Shown here piece after piece: positions 16,984 through 39,738 of a stretch of DNA of 45,237 nucleotides. The position numbers and the translations under genes are program-made. The notes beneath the pieces were generated by a model. It saw nothing but the letters and a program-made list of their open reading frames with translations. It was not told the origin of the DNA and made no database searches. The stretch lies in the UHGV virus genome UHGV-1373231. The stretch is one strand, 5' to 3'. Numbering within the stretch: the stretch's first letter is position 1; every line of letters starts with the position of its first letter. Source of the stretch: a virus.

Positions 16984-18747
16984 TTATTTGTATCTGTCTC
17001 TAATAAAATGTTCACCTTTAATTCCGATTTTGTCATACAGATTTTTGATGGTTGTTGCCTGAACTTGTGCCCAGCGTACGTCGGTAGCGTATTGATGATT
17101 ACCTGGATGTCTAGGGTTCCATCGCATACGATAAAGTGTATTTTGACCTTTGCTGATATAACCTTGTCTTACAAATCTAGCGCCGCCAATAATACCTTTA
17201 GCGGGCGTCGTCCAACCACGACTTCTTGCATAAGGGATAGCATTATCAGGGTTCCAATCATACGCACCAATACCAAAGTAGTTATAAACACCAGCACGAC
17301 CACTTGAGAAGTAAGATGTACCATAACCACTCTCAAGGAAGGCATGTGCAATTAAGTATATTTCATTAAGGTTATACTTCTTACAAGCATAAGCAACTGC
17401 TTTACCTTGCCCGGATAAAGAACCTTTACCTCTCAGTATTTTATTAAGTGCTGAAACTGAAATACCTTGATACTTACCTAAATTAAGCATTTGATATTTT
17501 TGCGTTTTACTATTCCATATTTTTAAAGAGTTCATAGCATTAAGGGTTGCCGAATAACTGGCACCATACCAACCATTACCATAGTTGATTTGAGGAGATT
17601 TAGTCATTTGAATAGCTACGGCTCTTTTGAATGAATAAGCACTTCTGGAAATCACCACAGAAGGTTCTTTGCTTCCTTTTTTAGTTGTCGTTGTAGTTTT
17701 GTTTTTGTTAACACTAGAAGCAGAAACAGTAACTTTAATTGTTTTTGTTTTAACTTTATCTTTAGGTATTTCAGAAAGTAATTTCTTACTGTTTTTATAA
17801 AGGTATAAAAGACCATTAATGGTTTTATCTACATTTTTCTTAGGTGGTAACCCATTGAGTGATATATCCCAATCTCCGTGCTCATATACACTTCTCCAAA
17901 TATTAGATGTATCAACTTCAATAGAAGATGGTTTAACTGGTATACCTTGATATTTCATTCTTGAAACTGCTTGCAACATCGTGTGTATTTCATTGACTAT
18001 AAAATCATCTTTACTTGCTGATAAATCTTGGCAAACTTCAATGACAATATTGTCTGGGTGGCTTGGTACTTCGTACATCTCTAATCTCGGTTGCCATATA
18101 TGATTTCTATCTATGAAGTAGTGGGGATATTCTTTGTCAGTTAGATATTTTTCTCTGTCAAAGTATAAGTCAAGCACAGAACACATCGTATTCGCATTTC
18201 TTATAGTCACTTTTTTAGGATTATATCCTCTATCTTTACCTTGTACGATATCGTGAGGGATAAATTCAGGATATGTTGGTTCTTCATCGTCAATAGTGAA
18301 ATTGATGTGTGTTTGTTTCTTTTTGATTGTGACTGTTTTATTGTTGTCTGTTGCCGTATTACTTGAACTACTTGAGCTATCGCTAGGCTTAGGCGGGTTT
18401 TTCTCTGCTTTGTATGGCGGTCTAACAAAATAGATATTCCCGCCGTTACCGTTATAGTTATGATTAACAAAAGCCGCTCTTGATCCACTCCATTGATTAG
18501 AACCCACCCAGTTCTGATCCACACATTTAAAGTGTGATTTATCACTAGGACCAACAACTATTGCAGTATGTCCAGCCCAACCATAAGTCCATACTGCTAT
18601 ATCACCAGGCTTAGGTGTGAAACTAGATGTATTTCTATAAATTTTCCACGATCTATTAGGGTATTGACTACGATTTGCCATAGCATTTGCATTTCCCCAA
18701 GTTCTAAAATGCCAATATCTTTGAAAAATATAGTTAGGTAGATCCCA
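16984..18747 (-). CDS. tail-associated peptidoglycan hydrolase, exon 2 (rest of the CHAP domain plus a C-terminal glucosaminidase domain)
   Basis: Starts WDLPNYIFQRYWHFRTWGNANAM..., the continuation of a CHAP domain. The C-terminus is a mannosyl-glycoprotein endo-beta-N-acetylglucosaminidase domain. Confidence 0.6.
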   Translation of the reverse strand, partial: WDLPNYIFQRYWHFRTWGNANAMANRSQYPNRSWKIYRNTSSFTPKPGDIAVWTYGWAGHTAIVVGPSDKSHFKCVDQNWVGSNQWSGSRAAFVNHNYNGNGGNIYFVRPPYKAEKNPPKPSDSSSSSSNTATDNNKTVTIKKKQTHINFTIDDEEPTYPEFIPHDIVQGKDRGYNPKKVTIRNANTMCSVLDLYFDREKYLTDKEYPHYFIDRNHIWQPRLEMYEVPSHPDNIVIEVCQDLSASKDDFIVNEIHTMLQAVSRMKYQGIPVKPSSIEVDTSNIWRSVYEHGDWDISLNGLPPKKNVDKTINGLLYLYKNSKKLLSEIPKDKVKTKTIKVTVSASSVNKNKTTTTTKKGSKEPSVVISRSAYSFKRAVAIQMTKSPQINYGNGWYGASYSATLNAMNSLKIWNSKTQKYQMLNLGKYQGISVSALNKILRGKGSLSGQGKAVAYACKKYNLNEIYLIAHAFLESGYGTSYFSSGRAGVYNYFGIGAYDWNPDNAIPYARSRGWTTPAKGIIGGARFVRQGYISKGQNTLYRMRWNPRHPGNHQYATDVRWAQVQATTIKNLYDKIGIKGEHFIRDRYK

Positions 18748-18992
18748 CAATATTGTTACGATAGTATTCGCTACTTACTACCTTCTTCATATTTCTATGA
18801 ATGTTCAGACTATATCATCAACCCAATAGGTTGCTCCCCGTTTCCACTCGCTTGAGCGTACGTCTTTCGACTAGTCGTTGCACGTTCCTATCTCTAGGCT
18901 TCGCTCATGATTGCCCTCGTCTTTACGTTAGGGGTTCCCATGAATTAGAGGAGTTTTCATTAATGATTACTCACTAATGGTGCTGAAAGTTA
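18748..18992 (-). mobile_element. group I self-splicing intron (245 nt, no ORF) in the tail hydrolase gene
   Basis: Exon 1 ends in U (..CAGUGU) and the intron ends in G (..AAUAUUG). The intron carries R-like GUGCAACGACUAGUC and S-like GAUAUAGUCUG core elements. Its GC content is well above the flanks. Confidence 0.6.
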
Positions 18993-19109
18993 ACACTGGA
19001 AACCATATCTTCCGTCAATATCTACCCCTTTATGGTTCTTAGCCATCCATTTAGCCCAATTTACAACTTGCGAAGCTGTTGGCTTTCCGCTTTTAGGTAG
19101 TATAGCCAT
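18993..19109 (-). CDS. tail-associated peptidoglycan hydrolase, exon 1 (39 codons, start of the CHAP domain)
   Basis: MAILPKSGKPTASQVVNWAKWMAKNHKGVDIDGRYGFQC ends exactly at the CHAP catalytic Cys. The frame hits TAA immediately afterwards, inside the intron. Confidence 0.6.
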
Positions 19110-19161
19110 TTACACACCTACTTTCTTTGTAAAAATAAAAAGCCAACACTAAAGTGTCAGC

Positions 19162-19575
19162 TTAAAATAGTACGGAGGCTAAACCGAAAGCAGCTGCAAT
19201 AATAGCGCAACCACCACTAATTAACGCTACTACTACTTGAACATTTCCTTTTTGTTTATCAGAAATCGACTTATTTATATTTTCTAATTGCGCTTCGTGA
19301 GATTTAACTGTGTACTTTACGTCAGTGAATTCATTTCCCACTTTTTCTATCACACCACTAATTTTTTCTAAATGTTTTTCTAATCGTTCTTGAGATTCGA
19401 ATTGTTTTTCTTGTAATCCTGTTTGCTTCTCTAATCTTTTATCGAGAGTGCTATAAGCTTCGATGTGTTTTCTGTCGTTTTCGTTGATTTTTTCATAAAT
19501 CTTACCGGTGTTTTGTATCCATTCAGTACGTAATACGTACTTATCTTCTTTTTCCGACAATCTCCACACCTCCAT
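19162..19575 (-). CDS. coiled-coil protein with a C-terminal TM anchor
   Basis: The C-terminus VVVALISGGCAIIAAAFGLASVLF is hydrophobic. The start is uncertain (ATG 19575 or TTG 19560). Confidence 0.4.
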   Translation of the reverse strand: MEVWRLSEKEDKYVLRTEWIQNTGKIYEKINENDRKHIEAYSTLDKRLEKQTGLQEKQFESQERLEKHLEKISGVIEKVGNEFTDVKYTVKSHEAQLENINKSISDKQKGNVQVVVALISGGCAIIAAAFGLASVLF

Positions 19576-30182: not shown

Positions 30183-30779
30183 TTATACAGTTTCTGCTGT
30201 GCTTGGTTCGTTAGGTTGTGGGATTTCTGACACAAGACCATCGTCAGCTGGATCTGCAGCAACAGTATCGTGGAAGCCATAAGCAGCTTTGTTTTTCTCG
30301 ATTTGCTCTGGTAACGTTGCCCAACCACGAACTTTTCTAAGATATACACCAAATTCAGTTTCAAATTCTGCGATATCTTCAGCGTCGTTAGTACGGTCAA
30401 TACTATTCCAGTATCCTTGACGATATTCTGCTTTATATTTTCCATCTTTGTTTTTAACTTTTTTATTGATAACCCATAATTCATAAGGGGTATCTTCTTC
30501 GGTAGCATCTTCAATTTCATCACATAACGTGTCGTCTTGGTTCATGTAGCAGTTAATCGTAACTGTTGACTCTAATGTACCTCCAGAGTTAACAGGACCA
30601 TCAACAGTAGCTTCTGTATCTCTATCTTTTTCAGTTTCGCGTTCTAATTCTGTTACCCACATTACTTTATTTGCATCTTTTTTATCGCCAGCCTTACGAA
30701 TCAAGACTAACTCATCAGTACCTTGTTTAATTGCCATAGGTTTTGCCCTCCTAAAAAATTGTATAAAAAAACAAGCCAA
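30183..30779 (-). CDS. major tail protein
   Basis: A 198-aa protein at the expected position, followed by a strong terminator. Confidence 0.65.
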   Translation of the reverse strand: MACFFIQFFRRAKPMAIKQGTDELVLIRKAGDKKDANKVMWVTELERETEKDRDTEATVDGPVNSGGTLESTVTINCYMNQDDTLCDEIEDATEEDTPYELWVINKKVKNKDGKYKAEYRQGYWNSIDRTNDAEDIAEFETEFGVYLRKVRGWATLPEQIEKNKAAYGFHDTVAADPADDGLVSEIPQPNEPSTAETV

Positions 30780-31169
30780 TTAATGACTTGTGTATTCGAT
30801 ATTTATTGTTATATGTGATAATGCTTGATTACTTTCGATTTCAATAGCTTCGTTGATGTCTAACTGTGGATTAAACAAATTGAAACCATTGAGTTGAATA
30901 TCGTCTAACATGATATTTTGAACTTGCATAAGCAAGTTATCGTTTACCCCTTTGTCATCATCTAACCCCCACAAATGAACAGTAGCAGTAGGATTACCAC
31001 CGAAACTGTCAAAAGTTAACACATTCATGCTATCTGTGGTTGTTTGAATAGCAATAAAAGGATATTTAAGCTCTTGGTTAAGTTCTTTAGTTTCAATTAC
31101 AGGGACACCAATTTCACTAAATTTTTCATATAAGTAGTTGAATAGTTGAAGTTTGGCTGATTGTTTCAT
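30780..31169 (-). CDS. tail completion / tail terminator-like protein
   Basis: Positioned between the gp10-like and major tail genes. Its start overlaps the upstream stop (TAATG). Confidence 0.45.
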   Translation of the reverse strand: MKQSAKLQLFNYLYEKFSEIGVPVIETKELNQELKYPFIAIQTTTDSMNVLTFDSFGGNPTATVHLWGLDDDKGVNDNLLMQVQNIMLDDIQLNGFNLFNPQLDINEAIEIESNQALSHITINIEYTSH

Positions 31170-31295
31170 TACATGCCCCCCGTTTTACCGTTTATTAATC
31201 TCTCGAGGTCCTCTCTGACTTTCCTTGTATATCTTTCATAAACAGGGAACATAAACGTTTCAGGAGCCATGTAGCGTGTACCGTATTCAAGGAAT
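31169..31295 (-). CDS. HK97-gp10-like head-tail protein, exon 2
   Basis: Encodes (I)FLEYGTRYMAPETFMFPVYERYTRKVREDLERLINGKTGGM. It is translationally coupled to the next gene. Confidence 0.55.
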
Positions 31296-32302
31296 CTTTT
31301 TTGTTATCGTAAAGGCTTTTTATCCTCCACTTCTTACTGTCGCCAGTAAGTTCGGCATATCTTTTCAACCAATAAAAAAGACAACCATTATTGGTTGCCG
31401 GACACTCTTGCCAGAATTATATTTATTCATCTGGTATGCTCTACGATGCTGACTAGCCTTTCGCAATCTAGTCAGTTATCTCGGGATTGTCTTTCCAGTA
31501 TTTTTCGATGATATCAGTAAAAGGAATATTCTTTGAGCGATAACTCCAGACTTCATGTCTTGGAATGTTCAATCTTCTAGCCCATTGCATAGTAGTTAAT
31601 CTTAAACCTCTATATTCGTGCCAAACATTATAAGAAGTATTCCACCGTTGTTCTTCTAAAGGTATCCATTTGCAATTACTAGGCTCATAATTACCATTTA
31701 AATCGATTCTCTCTATGCTTAATTCTTCTGAGAAACCATTTTCTTCAGCCCATTTTATGAATGTTTCAACATCATGCCATTCATCACAAACTTTGATACC
31801 ACGTCCACCATATCTAGAATACCTTTCAGATTTAGGATTGTAACAACGTTGCATCATAGCGCGCCAACGTGAATATGCTGGGTGCTTTGTCAAACCATGA
31901 AGTTGCTTGTTTTTTAAGTGTAAATTCTTAAAATCTTGTTCTTTCTTTAAACAACCACATGAATTTGTTGAACCTAATGTATCACTTCTAATTGAAACAA
32001 TGTTTCCGCAATCACATTCGCATATCCAAAATGTTTTTCGCGATGACTTATTTAAATCTATTTCTTTAACTACCAATCTACCGTATCTTTGCCCTGTTTT
32101 ATCTTTAATTCTAGGGTTATCGACAATATTTCCTTTTTCATCTCTTTTAATCATGGTATCACCTCTTAGGTATATTATACCATGTACCAACTTCAAAAAA
32201 CACTAATATATTAAAGAGTTCCCCCGATATTGCCCGGTTATTCACTATGCTGTTACCAACATAGGCGGGATTCCATTTCCCGAATACCCAGCATTAGAGG
32301 TA
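31296..32302 (-). mobile_element. group I intron (1007 nt) carrying a homing-endonuclease gene
   Basis: It splits the conserved gp10 motif YA...E.GT between exons. Exon 1 ends in U and the intron ends in G. Hairpins and a P7-like GGCUAGUC lie in the 3' part. Confidence 0.55.
31468..32154 (-). CDS. intron-encoded putative homing endonuclease / DNA-binding protein
   Basis: An extended -10 (TGGTATAAT) and RBS AAGAGGTGA precede ATG 32154. An N-terminal Cys cluster is followed by HPAYSRWRAMMQRCYNPKSERYSRYGGRGIKVCDEW. Confidence 0.5.
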   Translation of the reverse strand: MIKRDEKGNIVDNPRIKDKTGQRYGRLVVKEIDLNKSSRKTFWICECDCGNIVSIRSDTLGSTNSCGCLKKEQDFKNLHLKNKQLHGLTKHPAYSRWRAMMQRCYNPKSERYSRYGGRGIKVCDEWHDVETFIKWAEENGFSEELSIERIDLNGNYEPSNCKWIPLEEQRWNTSYNVWHEYRGLRLTTMQWARRLNIPRHEVWSYRSKNIPFTDIIEKYWKDNPEITD

Positions 32303-32514
32303 ATAGCATACTTCATATCGCCATTTTTTGTATCTCTGATCATTCTAGCTAAGTTACCTGTCCAGTAACCTTTATTCATTATTGACTTAGCGCTCACAAC
32401 AGTATCTTTAGCGAACTCGCCAGCATTGTTTTTGAGCACTTCGTCAACATCATCATCAATGCTTCTGTGCATTCGATCTAGCTTTCTAATTAGAGCATCG
32501 ATATCTCCAGCCAT
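32303..32514 (-). CDS. HK97-gp10-like head-tail protein, exon 1
   Basis: ...KGYWTGNLARMIRDTKNGDMKYA(I); the final Ile codon is split AU|A by the intron. The unspliced frame reads on to a stop inside the intron. Confidence 0.55.
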
Positions 32515-38427: not shown

Positions 38428-39738
38428 TTATAAGCCCATTGCCTTTGCTCGGCTAATATTCTTCTTAATATTGACGTTCGTTCTGTTATTTCTAGGGAAA
38501 TGGAATTCTTCTAGGCTATATCTCAATGCATCCATTAAGTGGTTATTTGCATCTATCGGTTTATTTAACCAATTACCGTCCTTGTCTTGGTCGAATGTAT
38601 AAGTGTTTAATTCTTCTATCGTATGTTCACATGTTGGGTGTACATATATTTTGAAACCTTGTATGAACTGAACACCTTGCATGATAGATCCTTGCCCTTT
38701 AATAGATGGTTTGAGATTAGAAATGCCTTTACGTTTAATCTCTGTTATCAATCGCTTCTCTGCACTATCTGCAATTATCTTTGCGTTTTTCAGTCCTTTA
38801 TCAAGATACATTTGATATATCTCATCAGTCAGCATACCTCTTTGATAATGCTCATCGTATATCCACAACTCTTTATTCTGTATATCAACAATAGTGCTGA
38901 TAAGTGTTGTAGGATCTTGAGTGAACCCAAAGTCACTGCCATGAGCCACAACTTGCTTTTCTTTCAATTTCTTAACCCAGTCAAACTCCTTAACCTCGAA
39001 ATTCTCAAACACCAGCCCTTCTGCTACTCCCCAATCTCCATCACAAACAATTCTTGCACGTCTTGGGTTTGTTCTATACAAGTCCTCATAACGCGCAATA
39101 TCGACCTCATCAAGCCATTCATTTACTCGATAGGTTGTTGTATATGAAAATGTGTTGTTCAACTTAGTATCTTCGTCAAAGAATGTAGGTTTAAGCCAAT
39201 GTCTCTCACTCCAGGGGTTGAATGTGACCGTTATCTGTTTGAAAAATTCAGAATCATCAATAGAACCACGTATAGATTCGACAACTGTACTAAATTTATC
39301 GAACGTTTCTATCTGATAGGCTTCTTCAAACCAGGCCCAACATAGTATGCCATTTTCTACTGTTATAGATGTTATTTTCAGAGGATCATCAAGGCCTCTA
39401 AATAATATCTTCTGGCCAGTGGGTTTGTAAGTAATCTCTGGTAAACTATCGTTAAACTTAAATAAGTGGGTTACTCCCAATTGGTTAGTAGCCCACTTCA
39501 AGTCTGTATATGTTGATTGCTTATTCGTATTACTGAAACGTCTGACTACAAGCAAGTTAGCCCACTCATACTCCATTAATCTGTATATAAAGTTTAACGC
39601 AGTCGTCTTAGACTTCTTACTCCCACGACTACCTTTCACTACTCGATAAAAGTTTTTGTTGTGCCAGAACTCGTTGTACCCGCTACCGATTGTTTTTGTA
39701 ACACTTAATTTTTTATCAGTCATGGGCTGGCACATCAT
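38428..39738 (-). CDS. terL: terminase large subunit
   Basis: Motif VVKGSRGSKKSKTTA. A nuclease domain follows with conserved acidic residues. Confidence 0.85.
   Translation of the reverse strand: MMCQPMTDKKLSVTKTIGSGYNEFWHNKNFYRVVKGSRGSKKSKTTALNFIYRLMEYEWANLLVVRRFSNTNKQSTYTDLKWATNQLGVTHLFKFNDSLPEITYKPTGQKILFRGLDDPLKITSITVENGILCWAWFEEAYQIETFDKFSTVVESIRGSIDDSEFFKQITVTFNPWSERHWLKPTFFDEDTKLNNTFSYTTTYRVNEWLDEVDIARYEDLYRTNPRRARIVCDGDWGVAEGLVFENFEVKEFDWVKKLKEKQVVAHGSDFGFTQDPTTLISTIVDIQNKELWIYDEHYQRGMLTDEIYQMYLDKGLKNAKIIADSAEKRLITEIKRKGISNLKPSIKGQGSIMQGVQFIQGFKIYVHPTCEHTIEELNTYTFDQDKDGNWLNKPIDANNHLMDALRYSLEEFHFPRNNRTNVNIKKNISRAKAMGL

Follow-up and report, generated by a model that had tools for sequence, protein, structure and literature searches.

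We analysed the 45,237-nt virus genome UHGV-1373231 (the window, by which we mean this whole stretch of DNA) and found that a putative tail hydrolase gene on its minus strand is interrupted by a 245-nt spacer directly after the codon of its catalytic cysteine. With a probability that we put at about 0.93, the spacer is a self-splicing group I intron of the type known from phage Twort, and the gene that it splits would give one product of 626 amino acids (aa) after splicing. The first exon (18993..19109, minus strand), taken from the list of open reading frames (ORFs) and the sequence itself, is an ORF of 39 codons that runs from 19109 to 18993 and translates as MAILPKSGKPTASQVVNWAKWMAKNHKGVDIDGRYGFQC. 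It ends in YGFQC, and a TAA stands immediately behind it. The last codon of this exon, UGU, is that of the catalytic Cys, and its final U is the base at the 5' splice site. Downstream lies an ORF of 588 aa (18750..16984, minus strand) that opens with a TTG start and continues as WDLPNYIFQRYWHFRTWGNA. The spacer between the TGT of the Cys and the TGG of the following Trp covers 18992..18748, exactly 245 nt, and is modestly GC-rich, with 41.2% G+C versus 34.3% for the window and 35.9% for the second exon. That second exon occupies 16984..18747 on the minus strand (1764 nt; 587 codons and a stop), starts with WDLPNYIF, and holds the rest of the CHAP domain with His99 and the DQNW motif, a middle region, and a C-terminal glucosaminidase.

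Joining 18993 to 18747 gives an uninterrupted frame for a 71.2-kDa protein of 626 aa with no internal stops, in which the ligated junction reads ...CAG UGU|UGG GAU... and the peptide across it is YGFQCWDLPNYIFQR. A Pfam profile search with the spliced protein identified CHAP (PF05257) at residues 33-118 (43.5 bits against a cut-off of 26), so that the profile begins within the first exon, and Glucosaminidase (PF01832) at residues 489-609 (47.4 bits against a cut-off of 30.2). The 588-aa ORF alone scores 35.9 bits for CHAP, with the profile covered from position 14 only, compared to 43.5 bits and coverage from position 6 in the spliced protein. The two catalytic residues, Cys39 from the first exon and His99 from the second, are invariant in the alignment of homologues, as are Q38, W40, D41, P43, and N44.

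The junction can also be read from phages that lack the intron. The hydrolases of phiIPLA7 and phage 55, which are 49-52% identical to the window's, align without a gap over QC|WDLPN and match residues 5-154 in a single piece in a tblastn search, and at least 80% of the N-terminus of the spliced CHAP domain is covered in one place in 445 phage records. Excision restores the invariant motif QC|WDLPNYIF that these intron-less homologues read straight through. Moreover, phiIPLA5, which has the intron, and phiIPLA7, which does not, share identical exon flanks, GGCGCCCAGTGT|TGGGATTTACCA, just as a precise insertion or deletion would leave them.

Structure and covariation of the intron

The Rfam family RF00028 (Intron_gpI) matches 19010..18785 on the minus strand over the full model (positions 1-253 of 253) with 101.6 bits and E = 2.5e-25, where the gathering score is 50 bits. 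Together with the evidence below, this match leads us to regard the spacer as a group I intron. Details of the Rfam alignment, namely an extended P1 and its register in P6, gave no sensible pairing and were set aside. We used instead a secondary structure drawn by hand, with 15 helices named beforehand and then tested by covariation. In what follows, intron positions 1-245 correspond to window positions 18992..18748, and all elements are on the minus strand. The intron (18748..18992, 245 nt), the boundaries of which are set by the intron-less homologues, has an in-frame UAA as its first codon and the omega G as its last base, at 18748 (intron position 245), and the terminal ..AUUG is found in all six same-site copies described below.

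The internal guide sequence (18980..18988) holds the intron strands of P10 and P1. P1 is formed by GUGU of the first exon and GCAC at intron positions 10-13, with a U.G pair at the cleavage site and covariation at three of its four pairs. P10 pairs UUUCA (intron 5-9) with UGGGA of the second exon over 5 base pairs (bp), and 96% of its positions are paired among the six same-site introns. P2 is a hairpin with a GUAA loop (18960..18977; intron 16-22/27-33) that shows compensatory changes and is recovered by minimum free energy (MFE) folding, while P3 joins 18948..18953 (intron 40-45) to 18839..18834 (154-159) and is compensatory at four of six pairs across 18 introns. The P4-P5-P5a-P6-P6a domain (18882..18943; intron 50-111), which carries a GAGA loop on P6a, is supported by both covariation and the MFE fold. 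Within it, the hand-built structure places P4 at intron 50-55/83-88, P5 and P5a within 60-79, and P6 and P6a within 89-111. P7, which would be the guanosine-binding helix by analogy with characterised group I introns, pairs GACUA (18872..18876; intron 117-121) with UAGUC (18812..18808; 181-185) and is the same in all 18 related introns, those of Twort orf142 included. Its 5' strand lies within GUGCAACGACUAGUC (18883..18869) and its 3' strand within GAUAUAGUCUG (18816..18806). Between P7 and the 3' strand of P3 are P7.1, with a GAAA loop, and P7.2 (18845..18871; intron 122-131 and 135-148), where compensatory changes affect each of the three pairs of P7.1 and two of P7.2, and the MFE fold agrees. 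They are followed by the P8 hairpin (18819..18833; intron 160-174), with three of five pairs compensatory, and by P9, with a GAAA loop, and P9.1 (18760..18801; intron 192-207 and 211-233), compensatory at 4/6 and 6/7 pairs, respectively.

For the covariation analysis, six introns from the same site were aligned by MAFFT with no fitting to structure. In this alignment, 97.6% of the cells in the proposed helices are paired, versus 34-46% after shifting the 3' partners by 1-3 columns, and 12 pairs have changed on both sides. We then used a covariance model of our own, built from these six sequences, for aligning 18 Twort-type introns, and again found 97.6% of cells paired versus 36-46% in the slid controls, and 38 of the 66 pairs carry compensatory changes. 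All 18 introns keep the splice-site U.G, and P7 does not vary in any of them. The same model gives 322 bits for the window copy and 140-337 bits for the 17 relatives. Among the core helices, compensatory changes were seen in P3, P5, P6a, and P8. When the intron is folded by itself, the MFE structure (z = -3.96) contains P2, P3, P4, P5/P5a, P6/P6a, P7.1, P7.2, P8, and P9, and none of 200 shuffled sequences folded as well. The peripheral helices keep their pairing through compensatory changes and the core matches the Twort orf142 introns exactly, which indicates that the RNA structure is under selection.

Some points weigh against this picture. The alignment of 18 sequences was fitted to the model and leans toward the structure, which is not true of the six-sequence MAFFT alignment. 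P4, P6, and P7 are largely invariant and thus uninformative for covariation, P1 is short at 4 bp, and two of the pairs within P10 are G.U. For this genome, splicing is predicted from the DNA and by way of the orthologous intron of phage PH15, and the statement that the latter is spliced in vivo comes second-hand, from a paper that cites the original (PMC7235722).

The kinship to Twort is visible in both sequence and architecture. Identity between the window intron and introns 2 and 3 of Twort orf142 is 66-74% in the model alignment (about 76% over the aligned part by blastn), and the Twort orf142 introns score 188-203 bits with our model. The window copy and the two Twort introns have identical J6/7-P7 and J8/7-P7' segments, share the P7.1/P7.2 architecture, are about 250 nt long, and lack an ORF. 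In contrast, the host gene of the Twort introns is a myovirus tail tube gene, their guide differs (exon GCAU with GUGC), and intron 3 has a large insertion in P7.1. Landthaler and Shub reportedly described the Twort orf142 introns as self-splicing in 1999, and crystal structures of the orf142-I2 ribozyme have been reported. P7.1 and P7.2 are peripheral elements that serve to define group I subgroups. Their presence and covariation, along with the sequence kinship, suggest that the window intron is an IA2-like intron of the Twort type, the IA2 label being one that we presume to hold for Twort-type introns at large. Phage introns of this type are conventionally placed in subgroup IA2 (PMC11878797).

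These results bear out most of what a preliminary description, made from the letters and a list of ORFs, had proposed: a compact ORF-less group I intron behind a catalytic Cys codon. The 39-codon ORF from 19109 to 18993 ending in YGFQC and the 588-aa ORF resuming at WDLPNYIF are as that description had read them, and the second of these readings gains from the gap-free alignment to intron-less homologues. Its GC-rich spacer of 245 nt is correct if modest in degree, its R-like and S-like strings are present and hold the two strands of P7, the last exon base is the U and the last intron base the G that it had named, and its P1 of GUGU with GCAC pairs as drawn, with three covarying pairs. The intron as a whole is borne out by Rfam, covariation, the ligated 626-aa frame, and orthologous introns. 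Two of the checks that it had put forward, a search with the Rfam Intron_gpI model and a comparison with intron-less hydrolase genes, came out in favour of the intron, as the score of 101.6 bits against 50 and the uninterrupted junctions of phiIPLA7 and phage 55 attest.

No endonuclease ORF is present in the intron, which has stops in all three frames and no sense-strand ORF of 25 aa or more. Any mobility would therefore rely on trans factors or recombination. On the opposite strand, an ORF of 58 aa (18801..18977, plus strand) lies wholly inside the ribozyme and is almost certainly spurious.

Splicing and the hydrolase product

The DNA itself shows the family and structure of the ribozyme, where exactly the exons join, and that the reading frame is reconstituted, and the established mechanism of group I introns suggests how the chemistry would proceed. 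The gene would be transcribed as one pre-mRNA in which the intron folds into P1-P9.1. The first attack would come from an exogenous guanosine bound at P7 and fall on the phosphodiester bond behind the U of the first exon, where P1 presents that U to the internal guide sequence in a U.G wobble. The 3'-OH of the first exon, released in this way, would next attack behind the terminal G, with P10 aligning the second exon, and ligation would give a single protein of 626 aa with a full N-terminal CHAP endopeptidase/amidase and a C-terminal glucosaminidase. Translation of unspliced RNA would stop at the UAA that opens the intron and yield no more than the 39-residue peptide. That splicing actually takes place in this phage is likely by analogy with PH15, the orthologous intron of which has been reported, in a citing paper, to be spliced in vivo.

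A first alternative is that splicing is incomplete or conditional, with the intron setting the amount or timing of full-length hydrolase. This idea is compatible with a self-splicing intron and would add to it rather than replace it. We consider it unlikely, while ranking it above the other alternatives. An "on-switch" role has been raised for phage introns (PMC11878797), and UAA as the first codon of the intron would release ribosomes before they reach the ribozyme. However, no sensor or alternative structure is evident in the sequence, and close relatives, phiIPLA7 for one, do without the intron yet have identical exon flanks, suggesting that the intron is dispensable.

Another explanation is that two separate polypeptides are made, the intron being a dead relic or the spacer plain intergenic sequence. 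The 588-aa product would then serve by itself as a structural protein or a glucosaminidase, with its CHAP domain inactive. The two exons are indeed annotated as separate coding sequences (CDSs) in phiIPLA5, IME1323_01, IME1318_01, and StB12, the 588-aa ORF has a TTG that could serve as its start, and the corresponding hydrolase of phi11 is said, in a summary of earlier work, to matter mainly for particle structure. Several observations argue against this. Neither the TTG (18750) nor the in-frame ATG that follows it (18681) has a Shine-Dalgarno motif ahead of it, while the ATG of the first exon has AGGTG 5 nt upstream (19115..19119, minus strand), a Shine-Dalgarno-like motif by resemblance to the consensus only. 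The TTG at 18750 itself belongs to the conserved 3' end of the intron (..AUUG). Two separate chains would strand Cys39 on a 39-aa peptide, apart from His99, and neither a relic nor an intergenic spacer would be expected to match the Twort orf142 core while keeping its peripheral pairing by compensatory changes. The splicing reported in vivo for the PH15 orthologue (PMC7235722, as cited there) points the same way. Taken together, we find the production of two polypeptides highly improbable. As for the notion that the likeness to group I introns is due to chance or low-complexity sequence, it is refuted, with next to no probability remaining, by E = 2.5e-25 over the full Rfam model, the 322 bits of our own model, and the covariation controls.

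With the self-splicing intron as the preferred explanation, the product is probably a virion-associated peptidoglycan hydrolase, as suggested by its 49-52% identity to annotated tail hydrolases and by the position of its gene, which is preceded by minor tail/baseplate genes and followed by tail-fibre, holin, and endolysin genes. HydH5-type hydrolases, such as HydH5 of phiIPLA88 and the enzymes of phi11 and phiMR11, likewise have an N-terminal CHAP domain, a C-terminal glucosaminidase (LYZ2), and a place in the tail module, but their genes are uninterrupted. The preliminary description had called this virion enzyme needed for infection, which was overstated. As summarised in a paper on phage DW2 (PMC4124061), replication of phi11 proceeds without its tail hydrolase, the absence of which reduces the structural viability of the particles. 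By analogy with that summary, the enzyme would be important for particle integrity rather than strictly required for infection.

Related introns in staphylococcal phages

Both the intron family and the insertion site were already known, and the copy in the window is at most an unannotated instance of them. Introns at the same TGT|TGG site are found in PH15, phiIPLA5, IME1323_01, IME1318_01, StB12 (where it is the first hydrolase intron, L003 1567-1810), and a Staphylococcus petrasii prophage, with lengths of 243-246 nt and 84-90% identity. BLAST adds further copies in E72, BE01, BE21, and PG-2021_89, and the window's copy recurs with 100% identity in HOB 14.1.R1, an unannotated record. The introns of the PH15 group agree with the window copy in host gene, in site (UGU|UGG after the catalytic Cys codon), in size, in lacking an ORF, and in their helices, and they differ from it by small changes, mostly compensatory, in P2, P5/P5a, P6a, P7.1, P9, and P9.1. 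In PH15, the genes annotated as joins are ph2 (large terminase) and ph24 (hydrolase). The latter is a two-piece join, and removal of the predicted 246 nt leaves an open CDS of 1902 nt. According to a 2020 paper that cites the 2007 genome paper, PH15 has two introns and splicing in vivo was demonstrated for both (PMC7235722). For E72, a non-coding intron in the hyd gene was predicted in 2021 (PMC8125051), while introns go unmentioned in the genome paper of phiIPLA5 and phiIPLA7.

The S. petrasii copy is a 246-nt intron at TGT|TGG in a prophage hydrolase gene on a contig of strain CCUG 62727 (L018, with the probe match at about 622-647), and judged from this sequence it widens the host range of the same-site intron to another coagulase-negative species. 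It came from a scan of a genome collection with a 26-nt probe from P7-P7.1, which returned two contigs only and says little on prevalence. The other contig, DATLAF010000203.1 (L019), is 3.3 kb long and assigned to the metagenome-assembled genome (MAG) of a Thermoplasmatota archaeon. Here the exact 26-nt P7-P7.1 string lies inside a related group I-like core (about 2430-2800), which is followed by an ORF that begins MNRIYKITNQINGKVYVGL and resembles a GIY-YIG endonuclease. This contig is probably of phage or bacterial origin and misbinned into the archaeal MAG.

The same gene has been entered by introns at other sites as well. In DW2, the authors proposed a 349-nt hydrolase intron in 2014 (PMC4124061). 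Like the window intron, it lies in the CHAP-coding area, lacks an ORF, has an in-frame stop just inside, and is recognized by the Rfam group I model (80 bits). In contrast, its site is 6 nt upstream (GCU|CAA, before the Gln-Cys codons; L007 2152-2500), and it is only distantly related, with 35 bits in our own model versus 322 for the window copy. StB12 has a second intron in its hydrolase gene that is again Twort-like (182 bits in our model) and keeps the U.G pair at the splice site. This one occupies a third site, in the VDQNW motif (..CCGU|A GAU..), is about 309 nt long, and has a long insertion in P7.1 (L003, about 2038-2346). The tail hydrolase gene thus presents itself, at the level of sequence, as an intron hotspot, with three group I sites in the CHAP-coding region at or near codons of catalytic motifs, and the three sites fall within about 240 nt of coding sequence. 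It adds one more case of group I introns at conserved catalytic-site codons of phage genes.

One could speculate that the start of the CHAP-coding region is a recurrent landing pad for ORF-less Twort-type introns that are spread by an endonuclease acting in trans ("collaborative homing"), for which the HNH protein of the second intron described below would be a candidate. We regard this as doubtful. If true, alleles with and without the intron would mark an ongoing exchange of introns between lytic Twort-like myoviruses and the temperate phages that infect coagulase-negative staphylococci.

The practical value of recognizing the intron lies in the annotation of the 626-aa hydrolase, and it opens no new question. 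Where the intron is overlooked, the hydrolase is mis-called as a 39-aa fragment and an N-terminally shortened protein without the catalytic cysteine. Records that give the exons as separate or shortened CDSs with no join are those of phiIPLA5, IME1323_01, IME1318_01, and StB12, and the sole hydrolase CDS of the phiIPLA5 record starts inside the intron. This matters for the cloning of such enzymes as antimicrobials, as an active CHAP domain needs both exons.

A second intron and the genome context

The preliminary description had also counted the hydrolase intron as the second in this genome, and another intron is indeed present, although Rfam misses it. Rfam finds only the hydrolase intron in the whole window at E<=1, and a search of 30700-32300 at E<=10 gives no second one. 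Other weak Rfam matches in the window (Lnt, snoZ40, and others) are noise. The pointer to this element was a weak match of our own model (31439..31290, 15 bits), which in combination with exon homology delimits a putative group I-like intron of 983 nt (32278..31296, minus strand). It splits an HK97-gp10-like "tail completion / Neck1" gene into a first exon at about 32514..32279 and a second at 31295..31169, both on the minus strand, and it carries an ORF of 242 aa (32196..31468, minus strand) for an HNH endonuclease (phrog_374, E = 4.7e-71; no Pfam match), downstream of which there are P7/P8/P9-like elements. As a joined sequence, the two exons align in a single piece to uninterrupted homologues from 137 phage records, the closest being IME1323_01 at 75% identity. 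The gp10 homologue of PH15 was too distant for placing the junction, and that of IME1323_01 was used instead.

Phage BE28 has a 69%-identical insertion in the corresponding gene. The guide of the BE28 copy is canonical (exon GCGAU with GUCGC), with a U.G pair at the splice site and a P10 of 6 bp. The guide of the window copy, GGAAUCCCG at 32274..32266 (GGAAU-CCCG), pairs instead with AUUCC of the second exon and CGGG of the first. Homology with BE28 thus makes it appear that the splice-site pair of this second intron (32279/32278) is G-C in place of U.G, and by the same comparison the guide has been retargeted to a different gp10-family gene. A G-C pair at this position is highly unusual among group I introns. 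At least 24 independent assemblies have contigs with the G-C allele, and the five intron copies that were compared are 100% identical. Such identical copies therefore provide no independent evolutionary test, and the function of the G-C allele cannot be judged from them.

The intron of the PH15 terminase gene, which carries a homing endonuclease, is absent from the window, where the large terminase (38428..39738) is one ORF of 436 aa. In their intron content, these related phages are therefore mosaic. The window as a whole matches no database record, and from the similarity of its parts we place it among the mosaic temperate siphophages or prophages of Staphylococcus, in the S. epidermidis/coagulase-negative type. 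Some stretches share 92-97% identity with phages of S. epidermidis (CNPH82, E72, PG-2021_93, and HOB 14.1.R1 among them), and the structural module shares 76-78% with IME1323_01, IME1318_01, and StB12. The endolysin of the window has the same CHAP motif as the tail hydrolase, here uninterrupted. Finally, a pattern scan marked a putative terminator-like hairpin with a T-run (19140..19163, minus strand) between a small upstream gene and the first exon of the hydrolase gene.

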